Assembly: GCA_051294905.1 (NCBI GenBank)
Contig: CM119372.1
Coordinates: 31,064,001 to 31,128,000, forward strand
Reading direction: 5' to 3'
DNA: 64,000 nt
Origin: Botryllus schlosseri
Taxonomy: Eukaryota
Below the pieces are notes generated by a model. That model was not told where the DNA came from. It worked only from the letters and a program-made list of their open reading frames with translations, and searched no databases. Below are positions 11,073 to 49,881 of the stretch, piece by piece. Position 1 is the stretch's first letter. Each line of letters opens with the position of its first letter. A program made the position numbers and the translations under genes.

Positions 11073-13832
11073 AGTAGTGATATGGGATTCGTTTCGTGCA
11101 GGCCAATCAAATTACGCCACGTCGCCCTAATTGCCACGCCTATATGATTCCCATTGCCGCACCTAACGCGTGTTTGTGAATGTGAATTTGTTTTCAATTG
11201 ATTTATATGCGTGTTTATATCTGCAATGACGCCCATTGCAACGCCTAGATATTCTAATGTTTTGTGAATTTCAATACCGATTTTCCATGTGTATTTAGCA
11301 ATATGTATTGAATAACTTGCTTCCGAGAAATAAATAACATTCATTATACGTTAGATGATTAAATTCCGAGACTTTATAATAATTTGCTTCCGAAAAATAA
11401 ACATCATCACTAATTAATTAATATAAAATGCTATTTTGAGCGCTGCGACTTGATAATATTAATCCCTACGCTTCTGATGCATGATTTTTTTTTGTGATAA
11501 GGAGCTTGGTAACATTCAGAGTCTGCAACGATTGTTTGGATATACATTATAGCAATACCCCACTAAAGTATAGGCGGTTATATTACTCTATTGGTCAGAG
11601 ATAACTCATCCGTCCATATTTATAAACTTGGTTTTATCTGAAGTAGAATTTCAGCGTCGTTATTTGTTATAAGCCGAGAAATGTACCTTCGCACAATTTT
11701 TACAGGCGGTCTCACACACTTTGCTGCGTCTGAAGTAAAATTTCAGCGTCGTTGTTTGCTATAAGCCGGGAAATTAGAGTCGCTGCTTCGCACCATTTTA
11801 CAGGCAGTCTCACACACTTTGCTGCATCTGAGCTTCCTACTAATACATGCATAATTTTTGCATGACGAGAATAGGGTAATACGGTCAATAAACGCCGGAG
11901 GCGAGTCATTTAAACCTTGTCGCTAGATAATACCGCTTTCGGCTACAACAAAGTTGCCCTGCAACAAAAAATAGAAGCCCTAATGATCATGCAGAGGAAA
12001 GTTCAATTATACATCGAATTATTCGAATAGACTATCTACATTGTGTAAGTATGAAGTGAAATAGAACGGAGTTCACGCAAAAGTTGCTATTGATCATAGA
12101 CCTAGCTTGCTTTCAGAGCTGGAAACTAAATGCATATGGAAATTTACCTAGGTTTTCCCCACACGCATCAAATGTAGGCCTACTCAAGTGTTTATGAGGT
12201 GGCGAATAGTAGGTTGTTGGCATGCAAGGACGTCACATAGAATTGTGGAGTTTTCTGTAAACTATAATCCAGTGATCTATTTTCAATCACTATATTTTTC
12301 AATAATCTAAACTAAGTACTGTTAGTATGCAAACCCTAGGAAAGTATCCTCTGATAAAAGCAGGAGTAATTTGTTATCTGTGAAATAAATAGATGGTGCG
12401 CAATATGAGCGGTGCTGCGATGACTGACAAATACTTTGAAATAATGTATAAAAGTAGCGATTTCGAACTACGTAAAAAGTTAGTCCAGCTCACGCATTTT
12501 CCATTTTCAAAAGTCAAAATACGACATTTTTTGTAAAATGAATACTAATTTTAATAAAAAATAGGAAAAAAAGAGCGAAAAATTACATTTTATCCCGGAA
12601 CGCAACAAGAAAAATCGTATGAATTTGTAAACTACTTATTCATGACATAATATTAATTCTACTTGTACACTTTTTCACATTTTATAACACTTTTAGTAGT
12701 ACTTAACAGTTTCAGTTTTAAATAAAATTCAGAATATAAACTAATCGAAAAATTCGATAACCAATTTCGCGTAGGCTATGCATACAAATGAGGAACGTTA
12801 CATCAACGCGTGTTAACTAGTTGTATTATGTAGCTTGTAATTCATGCAAGTAAGTCGGACAAATTCGTCGCATGAACACGACTCTATGGACATAAAGAAA
12901 TGAAAATTTTGTAAAGTAGATATTTTTCGGTATGCTAAATTCGGCTACGCGGTGCTAGTCTTCTTGGCCGCATGAAATAGGATGTTTTAGCTTCAACCTC
13001 AACGCATTAGCACACCGAATTTAAATATAGGCGATAAATAATATACAGTAGCTCCAATTTTAATGAAAAAATAAAAATAAAAAAGCGCGAAAAAATGCAT
13101 TTATCCTGGAACGCACCAAGAAAAACCGTATGAATTTGTAAAGTAGTTAGAAAACTACACTATTCCGCTACACTAAAGACTTTGACAATCCGGATTTTGT
13201 ATGGTGTATACTGTATACTAATTTTACATTGCGGAGTATTCAGTAAAGTTTAATCCAGTGATTCTCCATCTATTTTCAATCACGATCCTCTTATTTGTCT
13301 AGGCTTCGAACCCCACACCCAGTACGTTTTATGGGGATTAATATTTTCAGAGTCAAGTACATGGTATCGAGACTTCATGAAACTTACTTGCAAATAGTTA
13401 CTTCTACCCTAATTTAAAAGGTTTCTCAGATATCGTTACAATGGAACTGGGTTGAGCGAGCGGTTAAGGCGTTGGACTTAAGTTTCAATGATCAGGTGTT
13501 CACGTGGGTTCGAACCCCACACCCAGTACGTTTTACGGGGATTAACATTTTAGATTCAAATATAGCGTATCGAGTACTTTTTCCCAACTGTAATAAAAAC
13601 TTTTAGACTCCGGATTTTGTGTAGTAGGCTATATACTAATTTACAATACCGCATTTGTAATTCGTGCAAGTACAGGAATATCATAGTTCTTGTAACAAAG
13701 TTGTCTGCGCACAATATATGTTAATCATAAGTCCTACACATTCATGATTTCGTCCTAGTTTGAGTTTTAGAAAATATTATACCGATATCGCGGCATCTTT
13801 TAAAAACAAAACCATGATCAATGCTTGAGAGA
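11073..13832 (+). repeat. Left 2,760-bp inverted arm
   Basis: Reverse complement of 19944-22703. Paired coordinates sum to 33776 at both ends and at the mirrored ORFs (11712..11909 / 21867..22064; 11344 / 22432), so there is no net indel. About 8 substitutions seen by eye. Confidence 0.97.
13446..13528 (+). tRNA. tRNA-Leu(TAA) gene or pseudogene in the left arm
   Basis: 83 nt. Acceptor stem ACTGGGT/ACCCAGT plus discriminator A. Anticodon arm TTGGA-CTTAAGT-TTCAA. Long variable arm. T arm GTGGG-TTCGAAC-CCCAC, then a TTTT run. D-stem mispaired (AGC/GGC), so function is uncertain. Confidence 0.85.
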
Positions 13833-14501
13833 CTAGGTTTTAGACTACTTTATCGTTACTTGACAGTTTCAGTTTTAGATAAAATTTGGTAAGACTTTAA
13901 ATTTTAAAGTAGTTTGAGCTTACGTTTGTATCACCTTGACAAGTAACATTATCAGACATTAAAATGATATTATCACCTAATACAGAAGTTAACACACGTC
14001 AATGTGCTTCGGAATTCACGAGAAATTGCTTACTAAGAGAAGTATATTCTTGTATACACAATAGTGGAGAGAATCTTTAAAATGTAGTAAGCAGGCCGAT
14101 GGGTATTCGTTGAGTTGTATAAGCATAAAAACATTCCCGCGCGTCTTAGTATTAGGTGGTAGGGTTAGAAAAAGTTTAGGTTTAGGAGCGCGCGGGAATG
14201 TTTTTATGCTTATACAACTCAACGAATACCCATCGGCCTGCTTACTACATTTTAAAGATTCTCTCCACTATTGTGTATACAAGAATATACTTCTCTTAGT
14301 AAGCAATTTCTCGTGAATTCCGAAGCACATTGACGTGTGTTAACTTCTGTATTAGGTGATAATATCATTTTAATGTCTGATAATGTTACTTGTCAAGGTG
14401 ATACAAACGTAAGCTCAAACTACTTTAAAATTTAAAGTCTTACCAAATTTTATCTAAAACTGAAACTGTCAAGTAACGATAAAGTAGTCTAAAACCTAGT
14501 C
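13831..14501. repeat. Perfect palindrome: 313-bp arms (13831-14143, 14189-14501) around a 45-bp TTAGG-rich spacer
   Basis: Arms are exact reverse complements by eye (coordinate sum 28332). Spacer is TCTTAGTATTAGGTGGTAGGGTTAGAAAAAGTTTAGGTTTAGGAG. Confidence 0.97.
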
Positions 14502-15111
14502 ACTTTTTACGTGGAGGGAGTACATAGCGAAGTACTTGTACATTTTGGAGTACTCAAGTATAGATTTGGCCTGCTTGCGCTATACTTAATGAATCATTCC
14601 TGCGCAATAAACACTTGAGTAGTTGGTGCGTGTAGACAAAAACCTACTTGAGTACTTTAAAGAAGTACATATACTTCTCTGCTTAACATCTCTGAACGGT
14701 AGAAGTGGAGATATAGTCTACAAACACATTCAGTTAGTTACTTACTTTGTAATCGCTATTGCATAAGTAAAAAGTTAGTATTCAGGGGTCTATTTTTTGT
14801 TTAATACTGAAACAGTCTTGAAGTAGAAACGATCCTATATCACAAACATTCGAGTATTTTCTGTATGTAGGGAAAACCTACTTGAGTACTCAGTACTTCT
14901 CTACTCATCGTCTCTGAACGCTAGAGGTGGAGATAGTCTACAAACATTTACTTACTCACTTTGAAATCGCTACTTGTACTTCTATTCGAGAAGAATTGCT
15001 CGACGTTGAATACCATCCGAGAGCGTTTATGATGCTACTTTTACATCATAGAATATAGAGTTAAAAAGTAAATAATTTTATGATAATCTACATCATCAAG
15101 CTGAAAAGAGG

Positions 15112-18100
15112 ATGTACCATCAATTAGTACTTACGGATCATGATGAAGTGAAAATTCCTTATGGGCTCTATCACCAAACTATGACTGCATTGGACATCAC
15201 TAATATCGCGAATTCTCTTATTCGCCAATCTCACGTGTATGAGTTAGAATTTCGTCAATGTCATCTCAATGAAAACCTCGTCCAGATTCTATTGGATAAA
15301 ATTCGCGGATTTGAATATGGGGTAAACGCCTTCGCACATTCCGCTCGTAGTCATTGATCATTATAAATTCACGTTCAATTTAAGTATATGTTATCCGTAA
15401 ATATTGAGATACAGTTTTATCGTTATCGCATTGTTCTGTATTGCTAATGTGTTAAAGGCGCAAATTGGTGGTATCGCAGCGAACAATGCCCATTTGCTAC
15501 TGGTATAGGCATTAGTCTCGATAGCCTTACTAGATAGACTATAGTCAGAGTTGATCAGTGTTAGGCTGTTCATAGATCATTTAGCGTTTTATGCGTTAAG
15601 TTTTGCGCTCGTTCAGGTCGAAATAAGAAAACTCAGCGTTACAGCACACAACGACATTGAAAAACTCATCCCATTAATCTGCGAGCTGATGAAGGAGTGT
15701 GCTTCGACGGAGCTCAATCTGCAAGAAAGTGGTGGATCCGATGATTTTCTGATTATTTTGAGTAAACTTATCCAGCACCATCAGGAATTGGTGATGGAAA
15801 AAGCTAGGCGCTAATCTAGTATAGAGCCTCTCGAAGTGATATTTCCTAATACCTCATTTCCGTAGGTGAAATTGAAAAACCTCGATCTCAGCTACAGGGA
15901 GAACATTAACTTTACGCAACTCGGGACTATTATTTCGAGCGATCTAACATATTTGTCAGTTGTGAACTCGCGCTTGCAGTCAACAGATTTCATTGCTATG
16001 CAGCTCAAAAACATTAAGGTCTGCGCGATTATTGCTGGGTACAGTTGTTAATGATCACATTCTGTATGAGCGGCTGTGTAGAGATGGATGAGGGAAATTC
16101 TAGTTTAATCTTAGCCAGTGTTGGGATCAAGTCACTACCTTCGAGTCACGAGTCATCTCGAGTCATTGCAGATTTTGACTCGAGTCAAGTCAAGTCAATC
16201 GATTTTCAAAAGTGACTCGAGTCAAGTCAAGTCACTCGTTTTTTGGAGGTGACTCGAGTCAAGTCGAGTCAAGTCAAGTCAAGTCACGAGTCAAGTCACA
16301 ATTCAAGTCAAATTGAATTTTCGATGTATGAGTGATGATTCAAAGTCATTACACTTTGCTAGCTGTGTGAAAGACAGATTAATTGATCAATGCTGATCAT
16401 TTATCTTGAATCAAATAACGAATATCTAGTTAAATATACCTGCGAAAAGACGTTGTATCACTCACGCACACGTAGAACTGTTAATAAAATACGTGAGTAA
16501 CTGTACAGTCACATGCTACAATCAGTTATTATCAGCCAAAATATAGGACATAATCAACATCTATACATCCGTGAGTAAATAAACGCCCAAACTATATTTG
16601 TTTGACTTAAATCATACATAAAGGTTGGTAAAGGTGAGCACTGCGCAACGTAAGCATTGATCCGTCTAAGAAACAGAGACACATTGATATTTAGAGTAAT
16701 CTTCTACTACTACTACTACTACTAGTACTACGACAACGCAAGCTGTGATACTTTAGTTTGCGGTCTATTTATTTGTGATCTAACAATCGAGGATCAGTGT
16801 ATCGTACGATCAGTGAATGACTGGCTGCTCTCACAAAGTGACACCGGCGTATCTCGAACAATCCGAACATACACAAGATACAGTGATTTATTCGACACCG
16901 TTTACTTGATGACTTGAAATTGACTCGTAAATTTTGCTCCGAGTCACGAGTCAATGCGCATTTTTAAAGCTTCGAGTCAAGTCAAGTCAAGTCATTTTTC
17001 CAAAGTGACTCGAGTCAAGTCAAGTCATACGAAAAAGTTGACTCGAGTCTGACTCGAGTCAAGTCAAGACTCGAGTCATCCCAACACTGATCTTAGCACA
17101 TTTAGCCTATATTATGACGTGAGTGACTAAACAACATTTTTTGCTGTTATAAGTTTGAATTTTTTATGCCTGATCATTGCTGATCGTAAATTTACAGTTT
17201 CCGATATTTTTAGCTCCAATATCTTGACATTAGTTACAATCAGCTGGATGAAGAGTGTATGATCGCGCTGCCTGCCTTACTTTGTAAAGACAAAGCGGTT
17301 ACTCTTATCATGAAAGGATGTGGCCTTACACCCGAAGAAATTCGCGCTTTTGAAAGTTTTGCTGATATCGGGGTACTTGATCGTTTCTATAGTTTTGTGG
17401 ATCATTTTGAAATAAATTGGTGGATTTATAGGTTGAAAGCCTTGATCTGAGTTACAATACCGATATGGAACCGGCGGGCTTGAAAGAAATTGGATGCTTC
17501 GTGAGAAAGCATTACACGAAAACAGTTCGACTTTCAGCTTGCGAATTGGATGAAGACTCACTAATATCGTTAAATAATGGTCTCGGAATTTATGAGGTGA
17601 TCATTTGAACTAGATCTGTTTTGTTTTCTAACTGAAATATTCAATCACAGTGTAATGCTTATGTGAGTTTTAGTCATATTCAAGCATGACATTTCATTGA
17701 TCGATAGAATTTTCATCATCAATAAAGTGTTTCTGATCACGAGCTTCATTATCTTCTTCAGTGTTGAATAAGTTTTTGCTATTAGGAGTAGAAATCGCAA
17801 AAAAAAATGCTCAACCGTCGGTAAATAATATTATGACTAATCTATTACAGCCTTCGAGCCGTTTGTAGTCTCGTAAACTATCTGAACATCACACCATGTT
17901 TTAGCTGCATTCGCTGGATTTAAGTAGAAATCCTGGCATATCATCCTGCTACAAAACAGTAACTAAAGTCCTGTGCAATTCCCGTGTGGAAGAATTTAAT
18001 CTGTGTAATTGCAAGATGCTTTCCATGCAAATCAGGAATCTGAGCGAAGAGATGGGAAAACGATGCGGTACGGTAAGATCTTTCTGCTCAATCATAGATC

Positions 18101-18364
18101 CCAATGTAGCGATGTAGTTCGTTTCTTTACTTTTAAATTGATATTAATCTCGTATTATTCAATTAACAGCTAAAGGCAATCGACCTCAGTGATAGCGATA
18201 GAACGAGAATCGATGAGAAATACGTGAATTCCATTCAGAGCTTCGTGAGATATAATCCTGAATGCCGCAAAGTCAAACTAGTCTTACCGCGCTTCAGTGG
18301 GGAAGATATGAAGACCTTGAGAAAACAACTGTTCTCACCCAGTAAGGGGATATTTTCCGAATAA
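15112..18364 (+). CDS. Spliced LRR-only protein of NLR / ribonuclease-inhibitor type, about 407 aa. Exons 15112-15321, 15617-15790, 15866-16018, 17214-17372, 17432-17596, 17905-18072, 18170-18364
   Basis: Seven GT-AG, phase-0 exons of 153-210 nt join into an open frame with LxxLDLSxN repeats (LKNLDLSYRE, LQYLDISYNQL, VESLDLSYNT, LHSLDLSRNP, LKAIDLSDSD). Stop TAA at 18362-18364. An in-frame TAA at 15073 lies upstream of the ATG, and there is no NACHT exon inside the element. Confidence 0.8.
16116..17089. mobile_element. hAT-type MITE (CAGTGTTGGGAT TIR, GACTCGAGTCAAGTCAA subterminal arrays) in intron 3 of the LRR gene
   Basis: TIR CAGTGTTGGGAT / ATCCCAACACTG. 8-bp TSD ATCTTAGC at 16108-16115 and 17090-17097. 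Confidence 0.9.
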
Positions 18365-18462
18365 ATATGTATCTAGATGAGAATTAGGAGATTTCTCCTT
18401 TACTTGATAATGCTTTGCGTGAGCGCTACGGCCTGATAAGATTATAGGTAGGTAGGCCTACA

Positions 18463-18564
18463 TATTAGCAGAAGTTAAGACATGTCAATGTAACTTTATT
18501 AGCAGAAGTTAAGACATGTCAATGTAACTTTATTAGCAGAAGTTAAGACATGTCAATGTAACTT
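18463..18564. repeat. Tandem repeat, 3 x 34 bp (TATTAGCAGAAGTTAAGACATGTCAATGTAACTT)
   Basis: Identical units start at 18463, 18497 and 18531, with no spacers. Lies between the convergent 3' ends of the two cargo genes. Confidence 0.95.
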
Positions 18565-19007
18565 TCCGCATTTCTGTCTATATCGATTCGGAATCCACCA
18601 GAAATTGGTTACTATGTGAGCGAAGTATTCTTGCAAAGCAACAGCACAGGCAAATTTATATTTGTTCGGTATAGACAATATTATAGAATATGATATTTCC
18701 ATTTGGAGAGAAGACGAAATTTGATGTCGTAATGTAGGTTATTTTACACTATCGTAAATCTCTGTCGCTATAATGCTCGTAATCGAATCAAATTTGACCT
18801 GCAACGTATTCTGGGTAACCCTAACAAATTACTTACGTAGCTGTAGAAATTTGAAAAATTAAAAGTATAAAGAAGGTTTCCATATGGGGCAATCCTTCGA
18901 GTATTCTCAGAAGAAACTGTATAGATCTTACAGTAAAATGGATGCGATTAAACGATGAAGGATTTTATTCTTAAAATATTACATGAGACAAAACATGCGA
19001 ACATCCA

Positions 19008-19792
19008 TTATCTTGATAATGCCATTGCAATAGATTTCAGTCCGATTCCGACAAACACGAGTCCCTTCCAAACTTTATTGTAGTCGAAAGCGGTATTATC
19101 AAAGAATTCTACAAAGCCGTCCTGCAATAAAAATAGAAGCCTTAATGATCATACGGAGGAAAGTTATCGTGTCGTAGAATATAAATTGGGAACCGAATTA
19201 GAAGGTAAAGCTGAATTTCATCATCGAGAGGTGATATGGGCTCTGGAGAGCAGATACACTATATGTCTCATGCTAAAGATAATTTGTAAATCCTAAGCAA
19301 GGCATGTAAATCACCTACCCATCCTCCATTTCGCACTATCCACTTTCGTCTTTTGCTAGCAATGTAATTCCCAACTGTCTGTATGATAGCTTCTATATGC
19401 TCCCCGCGATGTTCAACATCGTTCTTGCGAGCAAGAATGCTACCGAGCACAAAAAGGGAGACAATCCTTCCCCAATTTTCTTTGGTATCTTTGAAAATTT
19501 CATCAGCTATCATCAGGAACATTCGCTCATCGGGTAAATATTCTTTATATTTTTTATTGACTTCAACATCACTACAGCGGAGACGTTTGGAGACTGCGTT
19601 TAGGACTGTTCGATATCGCTCGAACATTTCATCCCCAACTTGACGTAAGGTTCTCTCTGCTTTCGTATTTACCTTAACGCATGAGCCGTCGAGTTCGTAC
19701 ATGATAAAATTCCTGGTCAAGGAATATGCTTCGGATATAATTTCATCCTTTTCTTCAGTGATCGAAGGTGCTGATACTCGTGATAATTCCAT
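19008..19792 (-). CDS. Bcl-2 family apoptosis regulator, 195 aa. Exons 19792-19319 and 19121-19008
   Basis: BH4-like LTRNFIMYEL, BH3 LRQVGDEM, BH1 EIFKDTKENWGRIVSLFVLG. BH2 WIVRNGGW|DGFVEFF is split by a 197-bp phase-0 GT-AG intron at the family-conserved position after GGW. Hydrophobic tail VWKGLVFVGIGLKSIAMALSR*. No stops or frameshifts. Confidence 0.93.
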
Positions 19793-19943
19793 GGTTTGAG
19801 GAGAATAGCGAGTCAAAGCTTATTTCGAGATCTAAGCTACTTTGAAAATGAGGATCCTAGGATTTGCTTAATTTTCATCTATATCGTACAATGCGTTTTC
19901 GCGTTCCAGAATGACTTATGTCAATGAAAAATAGCAAAAATGA

Positions 19944-22703
19944 TCTCTCAAGCATTGATCATGGTTTTGTTTTTAAAAGATGCCGCGATGTCGGTATAAT
20001 ATTTTCTAAAACTCAAACTAGGACGAAATCATGAATGTGTAGGACTTATGATTAACATATATTGTGCGCAGACAACTTTGTTACAAGAACTATGATATTC
20101 CTGTACTTGCACGAATTACAAATGCGGTATTGTAAATTAGTATATAGCCTACTACACAAAATCCGGAGTCTAAAAGTTTTTATTACAGTTGAGAAAAAGT
20201 ACTCGATACGCTATATTTGAATCTAAAATGTTAATCCCCGTAAAACGTACTGGGTGTGGGGTTCGAACCCACGTGAACACCTGATCATTGAAACTTAAGT
20301 CCAACGCCTTAACCGCTCGCTCAACCCAGTTCCATTGTAACGATATCTGAGAAACCTTTTAAATTAGGGTAGAAGTAACTATTTGCAAGTAAGTTTCATG
20401 AAGTCTCGATACCATGTACTTGACTCTGAAAATATTAATCCCCATAAAACGTACTGGGTGTGGGGTTCGAAGCCTAGACAAATAAGAGGATCGTGATTGA
20501 AAATAGATGGAGAATCACTGGATTAAACTTTACTGAATACTCCGCAATGTAAAATTAGTATACAGTATACACCATACAAAATCCGGATTGTCAAAGTCTT
20601 TAGTGTAGCGGAATAGTGTAGTTTTCTAACTACTTTACAAATTCATACGGTTTTTCTTGGTGCGTTCCAGGATAAATGCATTTTTTCGCGCTTTTTTATT
20701 TTTATTTTTTCATTAAAATTGGAGCTACTGTATATTATTTATCGCCTATATTTAAATTCGGTGTGCTAATGCGTTGAGGTTGAAGCTAAAACATCATATT
20801 TCATGCGGCCAAGAAGACTAGCACCGCGTAGCCGAATTTAGCATACCGAAAAATATCTACTTTACAAAATTTTCATTTCTTTATGTCCATAGAGTCGTGT
20901 TCATGCGACGAATTTGTCCGACTTACTTGCATGAATTACAAGCTACATAATACAACTAGTTAACACGCGTTGATGTAACGTTCCTCATTTGTATGCATAG
21001 CCTACGCGAAATTGGTTATAGAATTTTTCGATTAGTTTATATTCTGAATTTTATTTAAAACTGAAACTGTTAAGTACTACTAAAAGTGTTATAAAATGTG
21101 AAAAAGTGTACAAGTAGAATTAATATTATGTCATGAATAAGTAGTTTACAAATTCATACGATTTTTCTTGTTGCGTTCCGGGATAAAATGTAATTTTTCG
21201 CTCTTTTTTTCCTATTTTTTATTAAAATTAGTATTCATTTTACAAAAAATGTCGTGTTTTGACTTTTGAAAATGGAAAATGCGTGAGCTGGACTAACTTT
21301 TTACGTAGTTCGAAATCGCTACTTTTATACATTATTTCAAAGTATTTGTCAGTCATCGCAGCACCGCTCATATTGCGCACCATCTATTTATTTCACAGAT
21401 AACAAATTACTCCTGCTTTTATCAGAGGATACTTTCCTAGGGTTTGCATACTAACAGTACTTAGTTTAGATTATTGAAAAATATAGTGATTGAAAATAGA
21501 TCACTGGATTATAGTTTACAGAAAACTCCACAATTCTATGTGACGTCCTTGCATGCCAACAACCTACTATTCGCCACCTCATAAACACTTGAGTAGGCCT
21601 ACATTTGATGCGTGTGGGGAAAACCTAGGTAAATTTCCATATGCATTTAGTTTCCAGCTCTGAAAGCAAGCTAGGTCTATGATCAATAGCAACTTTTGCG
21701 TGAACTCCGTTCTATTTCACTTCATACTTACACAATGTAGATAGTCTATTCGAATAATTCGATGTATAATTGAACTTTCCTCTGCATGATCATTAGGGCT
21801 TCTATTTTTTGTTGCAGGGCAACTTTGTTGTAGCCGAAAGCGGTATTATCTAGCGACAAGGTTTAAATGACTCGCCTCCGGCGTTTATTGACCGTATTAC
21901 CCTATTCTCGTCATGCAAAAATTATGCATGTATTAGTAGGAAGCTCAGATGCAGCAAAGTGTGTGAGACTGCCTGTAAAATGGTGCGAAGCAGCGACTCT
22001 AATTTCCCGGCTTATAGCAAACAACGACGCTGAAATTTTACTTCAGACGCAGCAAAGTGTGTGAGACCGCCTGTAAAAATTGTGCGAAGGTACATTTCTC
22101 GGCTTATAACAAATAACGACGCTGAAATTCTACTTCAGATAAAACCAAGTTTATAAATATGGACGGATGAGTTATCTCTGACCAATAGAGTAATATAACC
22201 GCCTATACTTTAGTGGGGTATTGCTATAATGTATATCCAAACAATCGTTGCAGACTCTGAATGTTACCAAGCTCCTTATCACAAAAAAAAATCATGCATC
22301 AGAAGCGTAGGGATTAATATTATCAAGTCGCAGCGCTCAAAATAGCATTTTATATTAATTAATTAGTGATGATGTTTATTTTTCGGAAGCAAATTATTAT
22401 AAAGTCTCGGAATTTAATCATCTAACGTATAATGAATGTTATTTATTTCTCGGAAGCAAGTTATTCAATACATATTGCTAAATACACATGGAAAATCGGT
22501 ATTGAAATTCACAAAACATTAGAATATCTAGGCGTTGCAATGGGCGTCATTGCAGATATAAACACGCATATAAATCAATTGAAAACAAATTCACATTCAC
22601 AAACACGTGTTAGGTGCGGCAATGGGCGTCATATAGGCGTGGCAATTAGGGCGACGTGGCGTAATTTGATTGGCCTGCACGAAACGAATCCCATATCACT
22701 ACT
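19944..22703 (-). repeat. Right 2,760-bp inverted arm
   Basis: Reverse complement of 11073-13832. Starts TCTCTCAAGCATTGATC (19944) and ends CATATCACTACT. Confidence 0.97.
20248..20330 (-). tRNA. tRNA-Leu(TAA) gene or pseudogene in the right arm (mirror copy)
   Basis: Reverse complement of 13446-13528. Confidence 0.85.
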
Positions 22704-25700
22704 CATCGCGATACTTAATCGTTCAATATGCGGTCATTTTACCCGCGTTGGTGACCACTGATGTAGGACGTACAAACCCTTAGTAAAGATTGCACGTGAA
22801 CATCACTTACATTGGAACGCCGCTTTGTCTTGCTCATGTTTGTGATCGGCAATGTTTTCTCACAAAATGCATGTAGACCCGGGCCGCAAGCTCCATTACA
22901 TGTAAGACAGAAACTGTCTGCGGGCGGCCCCAAAAACTGGCTGAGCTGACGCTTCAAGTGGTTAAAATAAATCATTATAAGCCATCAAAAAGAAATACTA
23001 GGAAGACTTTTGCAGCTCACTCACCGACAATTCCAGTTTGGCGCGCATCTGGCACGTGGTCAAATCCATGTCGCACCTGGATTCGTATCAACGCCGGCCT
23101 AAGGACATGCTGCTTGATGGTGCAGAGCGGCAGTTCGGCTCGTAAATAATAGTATTATTCGTGTGACATGAACGTGACTTAATATTGTATCATCACGTTC
23201 CCAACATTCTCACATCCACCAGCTCTTCAGCTAACTCTAGCTGCGTAAGCGTAGGGCATATAAAAATCGTATGCGCCAGGCGAGTTCAGGCTCGAAGTAG
23301 AAGAATATATCGGTATCTCAGTATAAACAGTAATTTGTCATTGCAAACGGCATGATTTTGTTACAATGCATTGAATGGTGACGAAACCGTGGTACGTAGG
23401 CTACACTTCATTGATCATGAGTCGTATGACTGATATAGTAGGCTATACGAAAGAGTGCAGTTTGTAAGATTCTAAACCTCTACTAAGAATAACGAGAACC
23501 ACAATAACATGAAGGGTTATTTGGAACATTTTCAAAATACGATTTTTGTATCACAATTTCGAAGGTCGTTACAGATACAATAAACCGGAATCAACACAAC
23601 TCTCACTTGGTCGTGTGTCTCGTTACTCTCTGTAGAGGCTTTCGATGGCGATGGAAGTGGAAAGTTACGGTTATACTGGTGTATGTGAACAAAGATACCG
23701 GGCGGGGTCTATGCTTTTCGCCACGTACCCGACCGCGTAATATTGTAATCCAGCCCATCAGCCTAATTCAAGGGCAGATGATTTTTTCGCTTCTTCACCT
23801 AAGCCAAACATGGGTCACGCACGCACACAGGCTTATGTTGACGAGTAACAAGGCAACGAGGTCTGTATCAGAGCAATGCCGTTACTGTTGGCTGTAAGTA
23901 GGGGATGCTGGGCAAAATCGGGTACGCTAGTGATTCGAATATTATGCTTCGACTCGAATAGACTGTACAATCGTGTCTTTTCTATAACTCTGGTCATTAT
24001 ACGCCCCTTGATGTTGCACTCTACTAGCATTAGACCAAAATGTTTCGTCAAAGCAATTTAAAGCAAATATATCAAACATCACAACTATAGGGTTGTGATT
24101 AAAACAAGAATCTATTTAAAACAAACTTGTTCAAAACAACGCCCTTTTTTGAAACATGTTTAAAAAAATCTAATCCATGACGTCTCGCATTGGTATTCAC
24201 AATTGAAAATACAGGTTAAATATAGCTCCTTTGACGAAATAGGCTTCCAACCCCTGTCATATACGGACCAAAAATATCTTTAACCAGGACTACATCGTCG
24301 TGCAGCATTTGTACGGTCGGCGCCTCGGCGGTCTTCATGATCAGAGCATTCATTCCGTACAAATGATCTATATCTGCTTACTGTTAGCTGTTGAACCCAC
24401 TATTTCGAGCAAACTTCCCATATCGTGTATACATCGGCTATATCGGGTGGCAATCGTCGTCCTTAGGCTCATACAGCATGTTTTTTGAAAGTATTTACAC
24501 AATTATAGCATAATTAAACAACTTAGAAAAACATTTTTTGAACGCCTTTGTTTAAAACACTGCTTAAAACATGTTTTAAGCAATTCGTTTTAAACAACCA
24601 TTTGTTTTAAATGCGACCCTAATCACAACGAAGCAAATGCTACTTCTCCCTCGCGAGCACAGTGAAAAGTCGATAAACAATACCTCTAATATCTTCTATT
24701 GCAGCGGTTCGAAATTCGGCGGGCGCGCCTTCCTTGGAGGGGGAACGGGGCATGGAAACATCAGGAGGGCGCGAAGCCGTGGTTAACTGTAAAAAAATTT
24801 CGCGGTCTGCGCGATTTATCCCCAGTTCATAGCTTTTGCTTTGTCCCATCCACAGTCATAACCTTCCATGCCATCATACTATCTGTTGTGATTGCTAGCA
24901 TTCTGGCTACATATAATGATGTGACGATAATGAGGCGCGAGATATTTTACTATCATAAAGGATGGCGTGTCTGAAAAAGTTTGAGAACCACTACTCAATT
25001 AAAATATTTTGCAGTCCGAAACAGGATGTCAAATGATTTGTAATTCTTTATAATTTATGCTAATTCATGAAATAAGTTTGGGCCCCCTTCGAGCTCGGCC
25101 CCCCTTAATTGGGAGATTTGAGGTGGGGCAGTTACGGCCCTGACTATAGGACTACCAATTATGCTGCTTTTAGCCGGCTAAGCGGTATGCATCTCGGCGT
25201 ATATTCAACCGTGAGTCACGTGTTGCACATCTAGCTATCATAGGGTTACCATACGTCCTCTTTTAAGATGATATGTCCTCTTTTTTGATTTTTTTAAAAG
25301 TGACCACGGAGGACGCCCAAATGTCTTCTTTTTCGGGATTTTGTTTATTTTTTGAGGATTTTGGTTACATAAAGGGCCAAATTCGACTAATATGCATTAA
25401 GTCAGCACTGTAGGAACGCTACGGCGGCTATTTCGGGAGCTGGACCGGAAAGTTAACGTTTTTTTTTCAGTCAACCACCTGTTAATGTGAAAGAAAAACT
25501 GTATTTTCCGGGAGTTGAGCCTCTTTTTCTTTTTCAGTCAAGCGACCACGAAGTGGGAAAAATTTACCATTTTTTCAGGATTTTCCTCCGGTTTTGAAAG
25601 TTTTAAATATCTATTTATATCTATAGCTACTGCTCGTTCAACTGGATGGTTAGGGCACATTGCATTGAAACAACAGTGACGTAACGTTAGCAGTCTATAC

Positions 25701-38768: not shown

Positions 38769-39681
38769 CAGTGTTGGGATAGAGTCACTACCTTCGAGTC
38801 ACGAGTCATTTCGAGTCATTGCACATTTTGACTCGAGTCAAGTCAAGTCACTCTATTTTTGATGGTGACTCGAGTCAAGTCGGGTCAAGTCAAGTCAAGT
38901 CACGAGTCAAGTCACTAGCCGAGTCAAGTTGAATTTTCGAAGTACGAGACATAATTTGAAGTCATTGCATTATGTTAACTGTCTTAAATACAGATGAAGT
39001 CCCCATTTATTCCGAATCGAGGAAGGAATAACAAGTTGATTATACACGCAAAAGGCGCTAACGCATTCGTTAAATTGCTAAAGTATACGCAAGTGGCGGT
39101 AGCCCCAGTCTATATAATGATCAGCCAAAATACTGGATAAAATACGAAACCTGAGAAAGTTGAAAAAGGATATGGCGCAATACCCGAATCATCTACATAT
39201 CCATGATATACAATTATAAACCTATAAACGATATTTGTTCGATTTAAGTCATACAAGAGGGTTGGTTTAGGGGAGCACTGGGCACAGTGAGCAGTTTCTA
39301 GAAGAGAGATGTATTGCTAGTATATTACTTTACTACTTATTTACGAAAACGTAAGCTGTAAGCTCCGATCACAGCGTTTTGCGATCAAATTATTTGTGAC
39401 ATAACAATGGAGGTTCGGTAAAACGCACAATCAATGAGTTATCGGTTGCTCTCACAGGTCACACCAGCGTATCGATAACAATCAGAACTTATACAAGATA
39501 CATTGATTTAGTCGACGTCGATTACTTGATGACTTGAAATTGACTCGTGAATTTTCCTTCGAGTCACGAGTCAATCCGCATTTCTGAAACGTCGAGTCAA
39601 GTCGAGTCAAGTCATTTTTGCAAAGTGACTCGAGTCAAGTCAATTCATACGAGAAAAGTGACTCGAGTCATCCCAACACTA
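38769..39681. mobile_element. hAT-type MITE, same family as 16116-17089
   Basis: CAGTGTTGGGAT...ATCCCAACACT(A). TSD AGAGCCAA (38761-38768, 39682-39689). Same GACTCGAGTC arrays. A related element follows at about 39736-40239. Confidence 0.9.
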
Positions 39682-40981
39682 AGAGCCAAATGAGTAATTT
39701 GTGTTCATTTTATGTAGAATTCGCTTTGTGCGGGCCAGGGTTGTAATGACTCGAGTCATGACTCGACTCGAGTAATCGAGTCAATTTGTGTATTGACTCG
39801 ACTTGTACGCGAGTCATTCCGTATGACTCGACCTAGTCATATGACTCGACACATTCTAGTTCCAGTTATTCAAGTCTCCTATATCAGTACCAACAATTGA
39901 GAAATAGGTACAGAAACTGTCAGATACGTGTTTGAACAAATATGTTTAGAGTGAGAAAATGAGTATATTATGGACCTGAGGCCTTCGATATCCCCCAAGA
40001 GTTTCATAGAAGTGAGTTGGACCTGACTTAACTTGATACTGAACAGTAAACACTATGACTTGGAATCGGACTTGAGTCTTAACACTTTGACTCGGACTCC
40101 ACCCGATGCTCCCTGACTTGGAATCGGACTTGAAACGGTGGTGAACTGAAAATGACTTGACGTGACTCGAGTCAAAACTATAACACTCAAATTAACTTGT
40201 GACTCGGAACCTTGTGACTTGGTTACAATTACAACCTTGGTGGTTATGAGAGAGTATTCATTGAAAATCTTCTGCTAGTTTTGGCGATATGTATATTGTA
40301 GCAGAATTAGTTAAACATGGCTCTATACAGAGTTAACGAAGCACGTCTACTTGATCTGAATTCTCAAGTAGGTTTTAAGACTTGCGCTACTCACAGAAGT
40401 AGTTATTTTTTAGTTAGACTATACTAACTCTTTTTTACTAGACATTTTTCAGTTTTACCGGCGAAGCTAATAGGCCTAGAATTCTTACTATTTACTTGGG
40501 CGTACTTGAAAATCTGTACTTGTACTCGAGTGGAGTCTACAAAGTTGCTTCCAGTTCTACTTGTGTAAAATCGATCAATACTACTTTGAGCCCCTCGATT
40601 GCATAATTTTAGGCAAGACACACCTGTACTTTTTAACATGAAAGATATCTACATCTAGGTTTGAACAATACTCAATAATCATAGTTATTGACATGTCGCT
40701 GTTGAAGGGATGGAGAAAGAACTGTTTGACCTCTCCAAAGTAATATCTTCCGTCGAATCATCGCTAAAGAAATTTAATTCCCCACCATTTTATTCTCTCC
40801 TCCCAAATATTATGACTTACAATTCTCCCTATCAACGTAGCTGCCAAGACGAATTTTCAAAAAACCTTAGGAAAATATATTGAACATGTTCAAAATTTTC
40901 AGGTGTTCTTTTTTAATATCAGTATTGATAAAAAGAATCTTCGTGCAGGATTCTTCAAGTACTAGCAGAAGCAATTCATAC

Positions 40982-43900: not shown

Positions 43901-46900
43901 TAGCCAGACACACCGTAAATCCACGTTCGTATAGCCATGAGAGATGAGATGGATATTCCAGCCTAGAATCATGTCTTCTGAAATTGTGAACTCATCAGCT
44001 GACGTAATTTAACACGCCAACGAACTGCAGCGTCATTATTTGTCGCCTCAACATATGCAATGTAGGCCTATATACATAAGTTACAGATGTGCGGTATTTA
44101 ATCAGGTGGCACTATATATCCTTGATTTGGGTCTAGAAAAGGGGCCTTACCTAGTTTCCGCACACAGCATCCAACATTTTAAACATTTTATGGATTTACA
44201 CTTGACACCATTGCTAATAAATGATAGAATATATTCAATATAATATGCATAAAGATATTGCACTCATTGAGAAAAGACTCACATGAACTTGTGTGTGGCC
44301 CAGTGGTCTCAGACTTTCTGTAATAATGTTCATCATCTCGTCGTTCATATTACAATTGCAAAAGTTGAATTCGTCGAGGCCGTTGGCACCTTTGCTCGTT
44401 GCTGCTAACGTTCCAACAATATGAGCTTCGTCACGGCGCAATGGGACGTTGGAGGCATTGATGACGGAGAGACCTTTCATCAGTTCGTCGTCGCAATTTG
44501 ATTCGTAAATTGCGGTGTACAATTCCATGCGATTATATCTGTTGTTGAACCCATCCCGTGTCTTCTCAATTTGCGAGCGAATCGATGCGGCAAAAATTTC
44601 TCTTTTGCCAGACTGATCTGAGAAGACGAAGATCCTTTAATACATTAGAACTATTAGAATTGGATGTAGCAAATATGTGGTCAACATGAAGTGTCATGCT
44701 TGACTTAAACTTGATAAGACTAGCGCAGCAATGACTCTGGATCTGGTCGCGATCAATATGCAGCCTTATACGGAGAACAACGGCAATTTCGACGAATATA
44801 CATTGTGATTTCGACGTTTTTGCCAGATATGGACTTTTTAGTCGCTTGTCTTCAAACCTGACATGTTATATGCTGGGTAGTGAGCATATTTGTAACAGGA
44901 TTTCTGGCTCGTGTTCTAAATGGCGAGTGGTAAACACCGAGTGTCAAAATAGAGAGTCATTCGAAGTAACACAAGCTATAACTTGACTCCCACTTTAACC
45001 CAACATAACCTAGCTTTATGCTAACGCAATATAATCTGACCTTATCTGTAGCCGCAACCACATAAAAACGTAGCCCATCCCCTCAGCCCCACCGAACCCC
45101 TCAACCCCATTCGTATAGCCGTCACACTAGCTAACCTGACACCGAACCATAACAAATCGATCCGACCTTATCCCTAACCCTCGCCCTAACCCAAACAATC
45201 CCTAACACTAACTCGACATTGTCAATAACTCTGTATTTTGAATGACTCTGTATTATGAATAACGTATTAGTAGTATGACACACCTTGTTTTGACAGTCGC
45301 TATATCGAAGCCTGGCTATTTTGAATTCACGCTATTTTGTACTCGCAATTTGGAAGTCGCTATTTTGGCGGGTCGCGAGGATTTCTACATCTCTTATATA
45401 CAATACACACGAACACACTCTCATCAAAAATATCTGTTGCGGCCCAAATATGCCTCAACAGAGATTTGCATATAGGTATTACTCCGGTACCATATCTATC
45501 GAGTTATTGGTTCAGGTGAGATGTCATGGTAAACATGAAGGCTATACAACGTATCACTTCGGGCTTAGGCATTGACCCGACCATATGTCATGCCTCCAAC
45601 GAGACAAAATGACCATGTCGGCTACCAAATGAGGAGTGACGTATGAGGTATACCTTTTATGAATACCTGGCCATCGGGAATTGATGCCAGATAGAGAACG
45701 CCAGTAACAAATCTTCGAACTACAGACCATCGTTCCTCGTGGAGCTCTCTGTTGTTGAAGTCGGTGAATTCCGTGAACTTCATTTCCGCTATATAGCTCG
45801 CTGCCAAAAATTCTTGCATGCTTTGATGGCAGAAGAAGAACGTGAAATCGCCTTCCATCAGATGACTGCTGACAAGATTAGTATCCGGAACTTTCGTCAT
45901 CAAATCGTGGACTTCATTCGCGGAGATTTGATAATTCTTCAAATCGCTTTCGTAGAATATGACCCTCCTTTCTTTCATGCCCTGAAACGCCATACCCTTC
46001 AATTTCTTGATAATCCCAGAAATTTGCCTCCTATTTCTTATATTTTCCACACTGCGGAATGATAATACGATCCTGTTGTACAGTTCTGTAACTGTCGCTG
46101 GAAGTGGTTTTTCCGGGTCACTTCCCATCACAATCGCCGTTAGAATCAGGAACACCGGTATTGTGATAAGATTGAGTAATCTTGGTGACATGGTTCGGAT
46201 ATTATTCCACAGATGCGCACCGTTCTCGCCTACTAGAAAAGTGAACAAAGACCGCGCGTCTTTTAATTCAAGTCCAGTAAGCGTGATAATATCGCGTGGT
46301 CGTGATTTCGCGGGTAGCTCTGATATCTTAAACTCACGTGAAGTCACGACGATTCTAGTGCTGCGAAGGACATTACGAGCCAAGATGTTGTAAATGATAG
46401 TTGGGGTATCTGCTTTACTGTAAAGGTCCATTTTACGAAGTTCGCTATCGTCAAAATCCCACCCGGCTTGGTCAAGGCCGTCTAGGATTAGAAGCACTTC
46501 GGATTGATGGTTTACTAACCATTCGAAAGTGTTAGCTATGTCAGATTTCTTTCCGAAAAGTCCGCCAAATAAAAATTTGGATAATGTCATAGACCTTTTC
46601 TTTATATCCTTCAATTCAATGTAGCGCACCATTTTAAATTTAATCGACTGGGTCGGATTGACGTCGCTTTTTGCAAGCGGAATTCCCTGAGCCGCTTGAG
46701 CTAATCTGCGTGTAAGAGTGGTTTTACCCGACCCCGCGGATGCGATTATACACGTCACATCGACTGCATTAGATAACTCCGATCTTTTCCTGTTCGATAT
46801 TGAGACGATTAGGTCATTAAATTTTATCACACTCCCTCTATTCTCGTCTTGGCCGTAGAACCCCGCCTCCTCTGTCAGTTGATTTCGGATTGATTTAACC

Positions 46901-47155
46901 GTTGACCCTTCGTAGATTGCGGGATCTGACGTGCGATTTACGCCGTGACGACCTTTAAAGTAATCCGCGAAGTCTACTCTTCGCATTTTGGGATGAACTA
47001 CAAGACTGGGTTCATTGAGCTGTTCGGGCCTGTAGTCATCAAGGATGCTGACAGTCGTATTTTCCTTGGTGCGGTTGTTGACGGTCTCTACCAGTTTCTC
47101 ATAGTTGATATCTGCGACAAAATTTGACTCATTCATACGAGAAAAGGTGATATCT
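40982..47155 (-). CDS. NACHT-LRR (NLR-like) gene, possibly damaged at the 3' end. NACHT exon about 47155-45654; further candidate exons 44617-44283, 43577-43473, 43304-43143, 41956-41870, 41603-41525, 41274-41194, 41131-40982
   Basis: Walker A IIASAGSGKTTL, Walker B VLLILDGLDQ, sensor IVVTSR, IPVFL motif, winged-helix FCHQSMQEFLAASY. Phase-1 join AAAG|GT (45654) to CAG|AT (44617) is in frame with LRR-like FNFCNCNMNDE and VENVDLRQNSL. The 5' end and distal exons are less certain. Confidence 0.85.
44980..45215. repeat. Degenerate (CCTAAC/TAACCC)-like low-complexity tract in an NLR intron, flanked by short inverted repeats
   Basis: C/A-skewed TAACC, CCTAAC motifs. Flanks AATAGAGAGTCATTC (about 44948) and GAATGACTCTGTATT (about 45240). 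Confidence 0.55.
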
Positions 47156-47163
47156 CTGTAGTA

Positions 47164-48008
47164 CAGCGGGGCATGGACCGTAGCAGGATTGGATATCCGG
47201 CCCAACCGGCAGGATCTTCTCATTTATGGCCGGGGCCGGATTAGAGCCGGATCAGCACTTCTCAGGGATGAGCGGATTTGAAATTTCAATGTCCTAATTC
47301 AATCCAAATCCGAAGCTTCAAATCCTAATCCTAGTCCTAATCCATAACTTTAGTATATTAAACTCCCAATCCTAATCCGATATAATCGTAGAATTCCTTT
47401 TAGAACTTAGCCTACATCTTTTGCCTATAATTCCCTAAAAAGAAAGAAAACGCATATTGAGTGCCAAAGTACATGAAGTAACTTTGGTAGGACGAAAATC
47501 TTTTTCGCCATTCACCACAGGACATCAATCGTACTGAACATCGGTATATGCAATCCAAATCCTAATCCATTTTCAAAAACATCTGAAATCCTTTCCAATC
47601 CTAATCCGGCAAAATTTCACAAATCCGGTTTTCCCAGATCCTAATCATAATCCATGGTCAACTCGGGCACTTTTCCTGATACGGCCGGAATCGTATCGGA
47701 ACTAGATCTCTACTTTCACCTTGGAATCAATAGTTACATTAAACAGCATTTCATGTAAATAAACCGCATGTTAGGACAAAGTTGCCATCATTACTTCAGA
47801 TAAGGGTTAGGCTTGATCTTTGAATTTTTAAATTTCTGTTTGTATTGTTTCAATCAATATTCAATACCAACCTGTGATTATGGCCGGAGTTGTCGGACCT
47901 GACCACGGATATTTCTAGGATCCGGCCTAGGAGTCGGACCGCAGTCGGACCAGGGAATTAAAAAACAGGATCGGAATCGGATCAGAGAATTTGTCAATCC
48001 GTCCGGCG
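47164..48008. mobile_element. CCGGA-rich MITE abutting the 5' edge of the NACHT exon, with a nested AATCC-type MITE (about 47263-47666)
   Basis: Similar to about 51590-52008 (GCATGGACCG...GAGAATTTGTC). Boundaries approximate. Confidence 0.65.
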
Positions 48009-49454
48009 CCAATTTATGCTTAGTCATGCTCGTTTACTCGCGTCGAAGCATGTTTGTGTGTGACAATCGAAGTAAGGTTTTGGAAATTGATTCGCAGTAG
48101 CCTACAGTTACTTCATGTCAAAATGCAGAGAGTGTGCGGACTTGCTTTCGCAAGAGGGAAACACCATTATATGAGAAGATAAAGTAATATGATGCAATTG
48201 GTGATGGGCCCGACTGCAAAAGCTTGTTTATAGCTAGAATCGGGAAAAGAAGAGGGTAACTGTGTATCTTTACAGCTACCTACAATTGGTGCTTCTGAAC
48301 AAGTGCATGAACGATCCATGCGTATCGTTCCGGGTACCCAACGCAACGCTCGTGGCTCGTCGCTGATCTCGTTATCTCACATTGTTGCTGTCATGAAAAT
48401 GAATCGATATGCAGACGTACCCTTCCTGGCAGTGTACGCAAACACTTCGGCGAAGGTGCAATTGTTTGAGCCCTTCACCATTTCAAGTGAATGAAATAGT
48501 GGTGATAAGGTCATATTGGGGCTATGCCCAAAAGCATGTTTTACACCATGGTTGAATCGACTTGGGTCGCGGGCCGGATTCAAACCTTTTGATCGCTTGC
48601 GAGACGTTACAATCAAATATGATTCAACAATGTTGCTGGAATGCTATATAATCAAGCCAATACATAATAGTAAGTCATAATATTGCGGATCATAGAGGCG
48701 CATCTCTAGCAACTTCTTTATTCGCAAACACTGGAATTGCCCCCAGGATACGTTGATTTTGGGGCTGGAAAACCAAACACTACCCCTATTAACTGTAAAC
48801 GCGGACGTTGGAATTCGATCATTGTCATTTAATCGCCAGTCGGGTTTCTCGAAAGGACGGGAATTTTTGAGTAAGAAGATATACAGCAGCGCAGTGCGAC
48901 CACAAATAAATTTAATTGAAAGATATTTTGTGTGTAGCGATTATATTCTCCATGCAACCTACATACAACGGTTTCACATTGCCGTTTTCGCCCCTGTCAA
49001 TAGCTATTTTGACTCCCTATTGTTCTAGAAAACTATGAACTTAGTGTGCGCAGATCTTTTGCCTCTACAGAATTTTCTGTCAATGTCACCGACTTGTCCG
49101 TGATGGTGACTGGAGTGACAACTCAGAATTGCCGTCGGGTGGTTGTTGTAATGTGACCTATGAACAATTAACTATGTTTTACATTTGCTGTCTTATAAGA
49201 TATTATTTACGTGGAAATATTTCACACTAAAAATCTCAACTTTGTTCGAAATGTGCTTGAAAATAAAAGCAATACAACATATGCCCAGAATTGCTTCGCG
49301 GGCCGGATGAAATCGTCTGACGGGTCGGATAGGCCCGCGGGCCATATGTTTGACACCCCTGTTTTAGACGGTTCTACAATTAACTTGAAAAACGAGCATG
49401 CATTTACGGTACACTCCTTTTGAAACAGATACATCTTGTTGTATATACCGGTAT

Positions 49455-49881
49455 CAGAGATGAGCGGATTTGAAATTTCTATGTCCTAATCCAATCCAAA
49501 TCCGAACCTTCAAATCCAAATCCAAAACCTAATCCATAACTTTTTCATATTCAAGGCCATGTCCAATCCTAATCCGATTCCAACTGGAAATTCAGAAAAA
49601 ATACTAATTTATGTAATGGAGGGATTCGAAAATTTTCTTTCACAACCAACGATTCACTTGATTCAAGATAACTTAGTAACTATAAGTACATTAATAACTG
49701 ATCTGAATAAAGTTTGTCGCCATTCGCCACACGACATTTCAATCTCCCAGAAAATAGGTAAATCCAATCCAAATCCTAATCCGTTCCGAAAAAAATGTCT
49801 AATCCAAATCCAATCCAAATCCGACAAAATTTCACAAATCCTGTTTTTTCAAAACCTAATCCTAATCCATGCTCATCTCTG
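49455..49881 (+). mobile_element. hAT-type MITE (CAGAGATGAGC TIR)
   Basis: TIR CAGAGATGAGC / GCTCATCTCTG. 8-bp TSD ACCGGTAT. A diverged copy lies at about 47263-47666. Confidence 0.92.

Follow-up and report, generated by a model that had tools for sequence, protein, structure and literature searches.

How does a perfect hairpin come to be fused to the inner edge of one terminal inverted repeat (TIR) of a transposon-like element? This question is raised by a 64,000-nucleotide stretch of the Botryllus schlosseri genome (GenBank assembly GCA_051294905.1, contig CM119372.1, forward-strand positions 31,064,001 to 31,128,000; hereafter the window), in which the element at 11073-22703 carries a 313-bp-arm hairpin beside its 2.76-kb left arm. 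The initial annotation had read the hairpin as a possible scar of a copy-back event that created the element: synthesis folded back at a short stem, copied 313 nt, and then switched template at a 2-nt microhomology. We arrived at a different answer. The hairpin probably (with a probability of roughly 0.7) marks the middle of a non-autonomous Polinton satellite, a giant palindrome that measures about 15 kb when complete and whose second arm would be rebuilt from the first by a turnaround at the central loop. In our best model, 5,442 bp of one arm disappeared from the window copy once the arms had last been made symmetrical.

The arrangement described for the hairpin proved exact in coordinates and identity (Table 1). 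Its arms pair over 313 bp with 0 mismatches around a 45-nt spacer, and the long arms differ at 8 of 2,760 positions. As had been noted, the hairpin shares the dinucleotide GA with the long arm, and its right arm continues into 14502; this continuity is also found in relatives. The element has AGTAGT at its left end, ACTACT at its right end, and the same 6-bp duplication on both flanks, and the window contains no N. When folded as DNA, the inner 93 nt reach -27 kcal/mol (z ~ -10), a stability equalled by 0 of 200 shuffles; the 45-nt spacer on its own is unstructured. Compared with Rfam, the hairpin reached no family threshold, its best match being a generic hairpin match to mir-BART19 (34.7 bits against a cut-off of 100). 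The 83-aa frames across the centre lack a start codon and any support, and we rejected them as genes. No pPolB, integrase, ATPase, protease or capsid gene was seen in the window copy, where the longest frame within 10900-23000 is 183 aa (Bcl-2), and a Polinton core-gene piece (L041) had no DNA match to the window element.

To place the hairpin, we searched the 495-Mb assembly (G000; C1 and so on are its contigs, L001 and so on the loci fetched). We counted 221 sites with an exact stem-gap-stem motif and 0 for its reversed control. The full 671 bp recurs at 94-100% in all 40 places scored among 713 candidates. Thirty loci, the best-scoring among these 40, were fetched: the palindrome spans the entire 3.7-kb locus in 25, and four others besides the window have arms of 682-1,650 bp. 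A palindrome that ends at 313 bp is seen in the window only (0 of 29 other loci). The loop always belongs to one sequence family and is therefore inherited, not re-made. The centre is retained even in L063 and L065-L067, where similarity to the window arm stops 46-82 bp from the loop. We tried to assign ends in nine elements, the window included; seven have AGTAGT ends with a 6-bp duplication (four perfect, three with one mismatch), and no such assignment was reached for the elements on C10 and C11. Element lengths were 11.4-16.4 kb, plus 18.6 kb for one enlarged by a gap, and we give the family as 11-19 kb. This is a family of roughly two hundred palindromic, AGTAGT-ended elements with a fixed stem and loop as their axis. 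The proposed fold-back at the CGCGCG/GGGAATGT stem around the TTAGG-rich spacer holds in that the site behaves like a turnaround, but it is not a one-off, being inherited at 221 sites.

Sequencing data support the centre. A joint that turns back through the loop onto the opposite strand is present in contigs of three of four sequencing runs (X1, X3 and X9, from different studies; X1 may be the source sample), but no listed contig spans the 13830/13833 junction. The family and its centre are real and not an artefact. Viral contigs gave 0 matches to the centre motif. The assembly handles these palindromes badly: all four double-centre loci inspected hold 100-N scaffold gaps (L005:2830-2929, L043:1817-1916, L044:1448-1547 and L060:2465-2564). 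We had considered such double-centre "concatemers" as replication intermediates, with loop direction distinguishing copy-back from slippage, and discarded them because all four junctions are gapped; these elements are false duplications made by the assembly. Two further double-centre pairs occur among the 221 sites. The centres at G000:C10:3399-4070 and G000:C7:3091-3768 lie within ~4 kb of the starts of long contigs, which are probably assembly breaks at palindromes. At L069:423-759 (G000:C14:14.5467-14.5471 Mb), a family arm passes into a different, imperfect 337-bp fold-back without the G-rich loop, which is either a foldback element that inserted there or a different kind of centre.

The two arms of a copy resemble each other far more than they resemble the arms of other copies. 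Over 290 bp, arms within a copy differ by a mean of 0.8, against a mean median of 11.5 in comparisons with other copies. Sites that differ from the window arm are mirrored on both arms in 202 of 224 cases, and whole modules of hundreds of base pairs are mirrored in L013 and L006. Left-right asymmetries number 106 in 44,720 columns from 27 loci (three gap-joined duplicates were dropped), and one of them recurs, in two loci 55 kb apart. The asymmetry of the loop and of the inner (CG)n run is inherited by subfamily. Insertions without a mirror occur in one arm of the C1 palindrome (a Polinton) and in L002, L014 and L018; because these later insertions stay unmirrored, the chromosome does not homogenise the arms strongly. 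Taken with the inherited asymmetry of the loop, the mirrored changes therefore indicate that one arm was copied onto the other before insertion, with the copied zone starting at the stem.

Relatives also reveal what the window copy lacks. The sequence of window 14189-19943 lies on both sides of the same loop in close relatives: 17100-19943 in those on C1, C10 and C17, and 14502-15998 in L002-L004 and L007. L045 carries the middle-arm sequence at 98-99%, and the 19943/19944 boundary is continuous in relatives. The 13831 boundary was matched over its full length by the window alone (40 scored of 1,112 candidates). Because relatives carry both arms and this boundary is single-copy, we read the window element as a ~15.1-kb palindrome minus 5,442 bp of its left arm, plus a 974-bp insertion in its right arm. 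Creation of this element by a one-off fold-back is not supported. Its oversized TIRs, which copy-back had been invoked to explain, are together with the 313-bp arm the remnant of a full left arm. The GA microhomology at the supposed switch is uninformative, since random joins of equal composition give a microhomology of at least 2 nt 18% of the time.

One-sided loss is not confined to the window. Thirteen loci were fetched for one-armed or other centres (L059, L061, L063-L073), and six were counted as further one-armed deletion copies; left out were L063 (symmetric), L064, L068, L072 and L073 (no centre in range), L069 (different centre) and L071 (ambiguous local replacement). All of the breaks fall within ~85 bp of the loop, two of them inside the (CG)n stem. 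The junction of one other one-armed copy was single-copy too (40 scored of 979). Taken alone, the window junction is an ordinary one-sided deletion. For its origin, a chromosomal deletion near the palindrome centre has about an even chance, and a polymerase jump in the free form is a somewhat smaller possibility. A template switch at 13831 is indistinguishable from a chromosomal deletion because both give the same sequence in a palindrome; the single-copy junctions would slightly favour the chromosomal event.

Several features tie the family to the Polintons resident in this genome, and the kinship with protein-primed replicons proposed at the outset stands on ends, duplications, terminal sequence and genes. 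Passages of Barreat and Katzourakis (2021; PMC8097293) give Polintons, or Mavericks, 5'-(AGT)2//(ACT)2-3' or (AG)3//(CT)3 ends and a 6-bp target duplication, a definition that the AGTAGT/ACTACT ends and 6-bp duplications of the satellite match. The genome contains at least 120 Polinton-type integrase genes of several clades, most without stops; Polintons were recognised from fetched loci and this integrase search, with core genes seen in L041 and L074/L080, which points to a potentially active helper. A 17.7-kb Polinton on C5 (G000:C5:25611682-25629377, duplication CATGAT, integrase match inside) and two other Polintons have ends that are 89-96% identical to element positions 20-93 of the window arm. 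Within the terminal sequence, positions 7-30 (window 11079-11102) vary between copies, satellites and Polintons alike, and are equal at the two ends of each copy. In this variable part, the window copy resembles the C5 Polinton and the C1 palindrome resembles a C12 Polinton, a sharing of variants that suggests repeated exchange of ends. Genes are held in common as well. At the left end of the C1 Polinton lies a gene that matches the Bcl-2 gene of the satellite with 82% identity in DNA and 72% in protein; for the satellite gene, the best outside homologues reach 30-36% (nine found). Other copies carry a death-domain gene and 240-390-bp subterminal blocks common to Polintons. In the Polinton pieces fetched, matches cover the last ~93 nt and scattered modules only, with most of the arm and the loop unmatched. 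Genome searches with Pfam DNA_pol_B_2 (0 of 9 candidates, controls also negative) and Pox_A32 (1 of 73 candidates) were insensitive.

The closest full palindrome, on C1 (G000:C1:20425964-20460221; L031, L002, L045, L032, L041 and L042), is 16.4 kb long with the duplication GGCAGT. Its right arm holds an inserted 17.8-kb Polinton with its own duplication, AATGTT, and with Bcl-2, ubiquitin-conjugating and death-domain genes. At G000:C6:114716-124869, a centre with only one intact half-motif has an integrase gene ~9 kb away; this may be a second chimera of the kind described below or a Polinton inserted beside a loop.

One element joins satellite and Polinton directly. Found through a half-motif 2.5 kb from an integrase gene, it spans 18,881 bp at G000:C5:20788136-20807016 (L076, L077, L074, L080 and L075) within a single duplication, CACAAG. 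Its left part is a satellite arm that ends in the inner stem and a partial loop, of a subtype different from that of the window. The junction lies inside the loop, at a 7-of-8 imperfect microhomology, and leads into the middle of a Polinton polymerase gene whose sequence is 98% identical to two other Polintons in which the frame extends upstream. ATPase, integrase, capsid-like and protease genes follow, and then a Polinton end. The first ~62 nt are the same at both ends, the copy-variable part included. The five pieces read contain no N; ~850 bp inside the integrase gene lie outside them. We called the 373-aa polymerase frame a putative pPolB from its visible polymerase motifs, its 66% identity to the C1 Polinton frame and the Atlas clusters that match it (DNA_pol_B_2 in 16-17% of members, score 0.92); it had no Pfam or PDB match. 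This single case points to a matching of a satellite end with a helper end, joint insertion of the two, and a template change inside the loop. The initial annotation had predicted a parent with arm and spacer on one side, core genes opposite and a short true TIR. Such a layout exists here, but this element is a recombinant daughter and not a parent, because its loop and its polymerase are both cut short.

These observations suggest the following cycle. A helper terminal protein and pPolB would start synthesis at the AGTAGT end; parts of PMC11161782 report that Polinton pPolBs bear an N-terminal terminal-protein domain. In each mobile cycle, the second arm would be rebuilt from the first by turnaround at the (CG)n stem next to the loop, and the free form would thus alternate between a hairpin, with one protein-capped and one closed end, and a palindromic duplex. 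Helper integrase would then insert the duplex. The chimera, in which a single duplication encloses a satellite end and a Polinton end, bears indirectly on the putative mobilisation in trans by helper proteins. A stronger version, which we advance tentatively and at rather less than even odds, is that the satellite is a programmed copy-back replicon of protein-primed Polinton viruses in an animal germ line, in which a dedicated turnaround signal of specific sequence, the (CG)n stem and G-rich loop, closes a single arm. The helper polymerase would read to the signal, turn and copy its own product, and a perfect palindrome would be integrated each cycle. Mis-switches at the signal would yield the one-armed copies and satellite-helper chimeras, and would allow the satellite to acquire a double dose of tRNAs and of the helper's anti-death genes (Bcl-2, death domain).

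A number of points weigh against a turnaround at the loop. The free hairpin or palindromic DNA, the terminal protein and the replication step are predicted, and none of them was observed. Mismatch repair of a snapped-back strand, or central cruciform cleavage, would symmetrise the arms too. The loop did not turn up in the seven Polinton-containing pieces tested. One-armed forms show no sign of spreading, since both tested junctions are single-copy, and passages of PMC8701086 present one-sided deletions starting at the centre as a known chromosomal fate of long palindromes. Any polarity is slight: in 6 of 7 copies it is the arm 3' of the C-rich loop strand that is truncated (p 0.125), or in 7 of 8 (p 0.07) when the chimera is added, which is not independent, having been found through a one-sided motif; genome-wide, the two half-motifs number 213 and 220, so that a polarity is not established. 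The loci sampled were the best-scoring and are thus biased to young, intact copies, and the count of 221 is inflated by false duplicates, given how badly the assembly handles these palindromes. Part of this can be accommodated by the same family and helper without any programmed turnaround. A displaced strand would snap back, mismatch repair or gene conversion (or cruciform cutting into hairpin-ended halves) would equalise the arms, and the loop would be a mere spacer that makes the palindrome tolerable. Such repair accounts equally for the mirrored changes, agrees with the stabilising effect of spacers and the frequency of centre-proximal asymmetric deletions in chromosomes (in parts of PMC8701086), and is not contradicted by a polarity that is not significant. 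It fits poorly with a stem and loop core kept in subfamilies whose arms are otherwise replaced, with the mirrored modules of L013 and L006, and with a chimera that switches template inside the loop. We regard snap-back repair as unlikely.

It is very unlikely that a one-off copy-back made both hairpin and long TIRs from an asymmetric parent that had Polinton core genes to the left of its spacer. The C5 element has the predicted layout, and the arms carry Polinton modules (Bcl-2, the death-domain gene, subterminal blocks), so that an ultimate fold-back origin of the whole family from a Polinton end is plausible. Close relatives are nonetheless palindromic throughout and have the same loop, and in the C5 element both the loop, which is of another subtype, and the polymerase are truncated. 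Of 35 integrase genes on C1-C3, just 1 is found within 20 kb of any of the 50 listed centres, and it is a nested insertion with its own duplication. An assembly error could have produced the lopsided window form with its 13831 junction in an otherwise real family, as the gapped double centres, the two centres near contig starts and the want of a junction-spanning contig among those listed might suggest. This is quite improbable, as the window is free of N, the junction is clean with no foreign bases, and the six other one-armed copies have different, gap-free junctions; run X1, possibly the source sample, also holds 0.79 of the 13400-14143 words against at most 0.56 elsewhere. It is hardly credible that the 671-bp palindrome represents a foldback transposon or miniature inverted-repeat transposable element in its own right, inserted at the inner edge of the long arm. 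Its recurrence as a whole in all 40 scored places is what such an insertion would give, but the shortest other arm is 682 bp, no duplication flanks the 671 bp, and the right arm is continuous with 14502 onward in relatives; here the initial annotation, which took the palindrome for part of the element, was right. A palindromic Polinton satellite with a turnaround at its loop remains the reading we prefer.

Table 1. Features of the probable satellite element in the window (positions in window coordinates).
Feature	Position	Strand	Remarks
Left target-site duplication	11067..11072		CATCGC
Distal 2,760 bp of left arm, all that is left outside the deletion	11073..13832	+	Begins AGTAGT; 8 mismatches to right arm
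Terminal ~93 nt, common to autonomous Polintons of the genome	11073..11165	+	Putative origin and integrase site
tRNA-Leu(TAA) gene, left arm	13446..13529	+	ARAGORN; Rfam tRNA 39.3 bits, cut-off 29
Novel junction	13831..13832		GA microhomology; 5,442 bp (mirror of 14502-19943) absent
Left hairpin arm	13831..14143	+	Inner 313 bp of left arm
Conserved inner stem	14130-14143	+	Variable (CG)n run
45-nt asymmetric loop, inherited family axis	14144..14188	+	G-rich on +; 3 TTAGG words, 1 C
Right hairpin arm	14189..14501	+	Inner 313 bp of right arm
Middle of right arm	14502..19943	+	Unpaired now; on both arms in close relatives
Short LRR-like frames	15076..18364	+	Pfam LRR below cut-off, best E 0.0086
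Secondary insertion, hAT-like non-autonomous element	16116..17089		974 bp; 8-bp duplication ATCTTAGC
34-bp unit	18463..18565	+	Three perfect copies
Intronless Bcl-2-family gene	19268..19792	-	174 aa from first ATG; reads towards centre; Pfam Bcl-2 E 1.6e-21
Distal 2,760 bp of right arm	19944..22703	-	Ends ACTACT
Second tRNA-Leu copy, right arm	20247-20330		
Right target-site duplication	22704..22709		CATCGC

Among the other features of the element, the LRR-like frames probably represent the exons of a spliced gene directed away from the centre: AG acceptor-like sites precede 4 of the 5 pieces inspected, and the same pieces are present in L003 and L045. The secondary insertion, presumably hAT-like from its general features, does not occur in the copies on C1 and C17. 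It has a relative at window 38769-39777; the two are ~85% alike, and both have AGTCA-rich subterminal repeats. Elsewhere in the window, a 533-aa frame at 45622-47223 (-) with NACHT and NOD2 winged-helix domains marks an NLR-like gene. Inverted repeats of 267 and 160 bp (93-98%, ~9 kb apart) at 47262-49881 and 58439-59712 probably belong to another small transposon. BIR (inhibitor of apoptosis) genes occur both in the C5 Polinton (L055:1365-1946) and as a three-BIR frame at window 62727-63965 (-). An integrase match lies ~5 kb past the end of the window (G000:C2:31132922), so a Polinton may begin at its right edge.

Extrachromosomal replication of Polintons rests on models, and this family offers footprints of a free stage at the level of sequence: arms reset between insertions, a chimera of satellite and helper with matching ends, and an axis of 70 nt that persists while arms are swapped. 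The model predicts a hairpin DNA half as long as the element and blocked by protein at its 5' end. The family also shows that one animal genome tolerates ~200 palindromes of 11-19 kb, which exchange apoptosis genes with a virus-like element and cause false duplications in its assembly. We found no description of palindromic or dependent Polinton satellites in the literature searched, with Repbase-type catalogues and subscription journals outside that search. New here are the fixed 45-nt axis, arm asymmetries that are not inherited, one-armed copies broken near the centre, and the chimera.

Foldback-type transposons such as FB, Galileo and TU also have long inverted arms and little coding sequence, and are moved by cut-and-paste transposases, with 7-10-bp duplications and arms made of repeat arrays. 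In contrast, the ends, duplication length and shared genes of the satellite point to Polintons. Closer in kind are the palindrome and hairpin deletion derivatives of yeast pGKL1 and the palindromic mini-genomes of the phi29 terminal-protein system, in which a protein-primed replicon is cut to one end, exists in duplex and hairpin forms, and is copied in trans. Those derivatives are laboratory products, non-integrated and without captured cargo, whereas the satellite is a natural, diversified chromosomal family.

The satellite resembles Polintons in its end motif, 6-bp duplication, 11-19 kb size, terminal ~93 nt and accessory genes. Unlike autonomous Polintons, the window copy lacks core genes, the inverted repeats make up the whole element, and a fixed loop occupies the centre. 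For comparison, passages of PMC8097293 give vertebrate Maverick TIRs of 46-1,447 bp, and parts of a butterfly study (bioRxiv 10.1101/2025.02.07.637071) describe gene-bearing polinton TIRs of ~2 kb. The asymmetric central deletions discussed in sections of PMC8701086 are one-sided and near the centre, and they lengthen the spacer and stabilise the palindrome, as in the window copy and the six others; they concern the decay of palindromes and not the copying of a mobile one. The topology we propose for the free form, one hairpin end and one presumed terminal-protein end, is that reported in parts of PMC6863802 for the enterococcal linear plasmid pELF1, which differs in being bacterial, autonomous, 143 kb long, closed by a 4-nt loop and not integrated as a palindrome. 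Finally, the family would share helper dependence, terminal sequence, self-complementarity and template-switch variants with the snap-back (hairpin) and copy-back (panhandle) defective viral genomes defined in PMC6140465. Unlike these, it consists of gene-bearing DNA of 11-19 kb, integrated in the germ line with target duplications, and it has kept one inherited turnaround sequence over ~200 copies where defective viral genomes have many independent break points.

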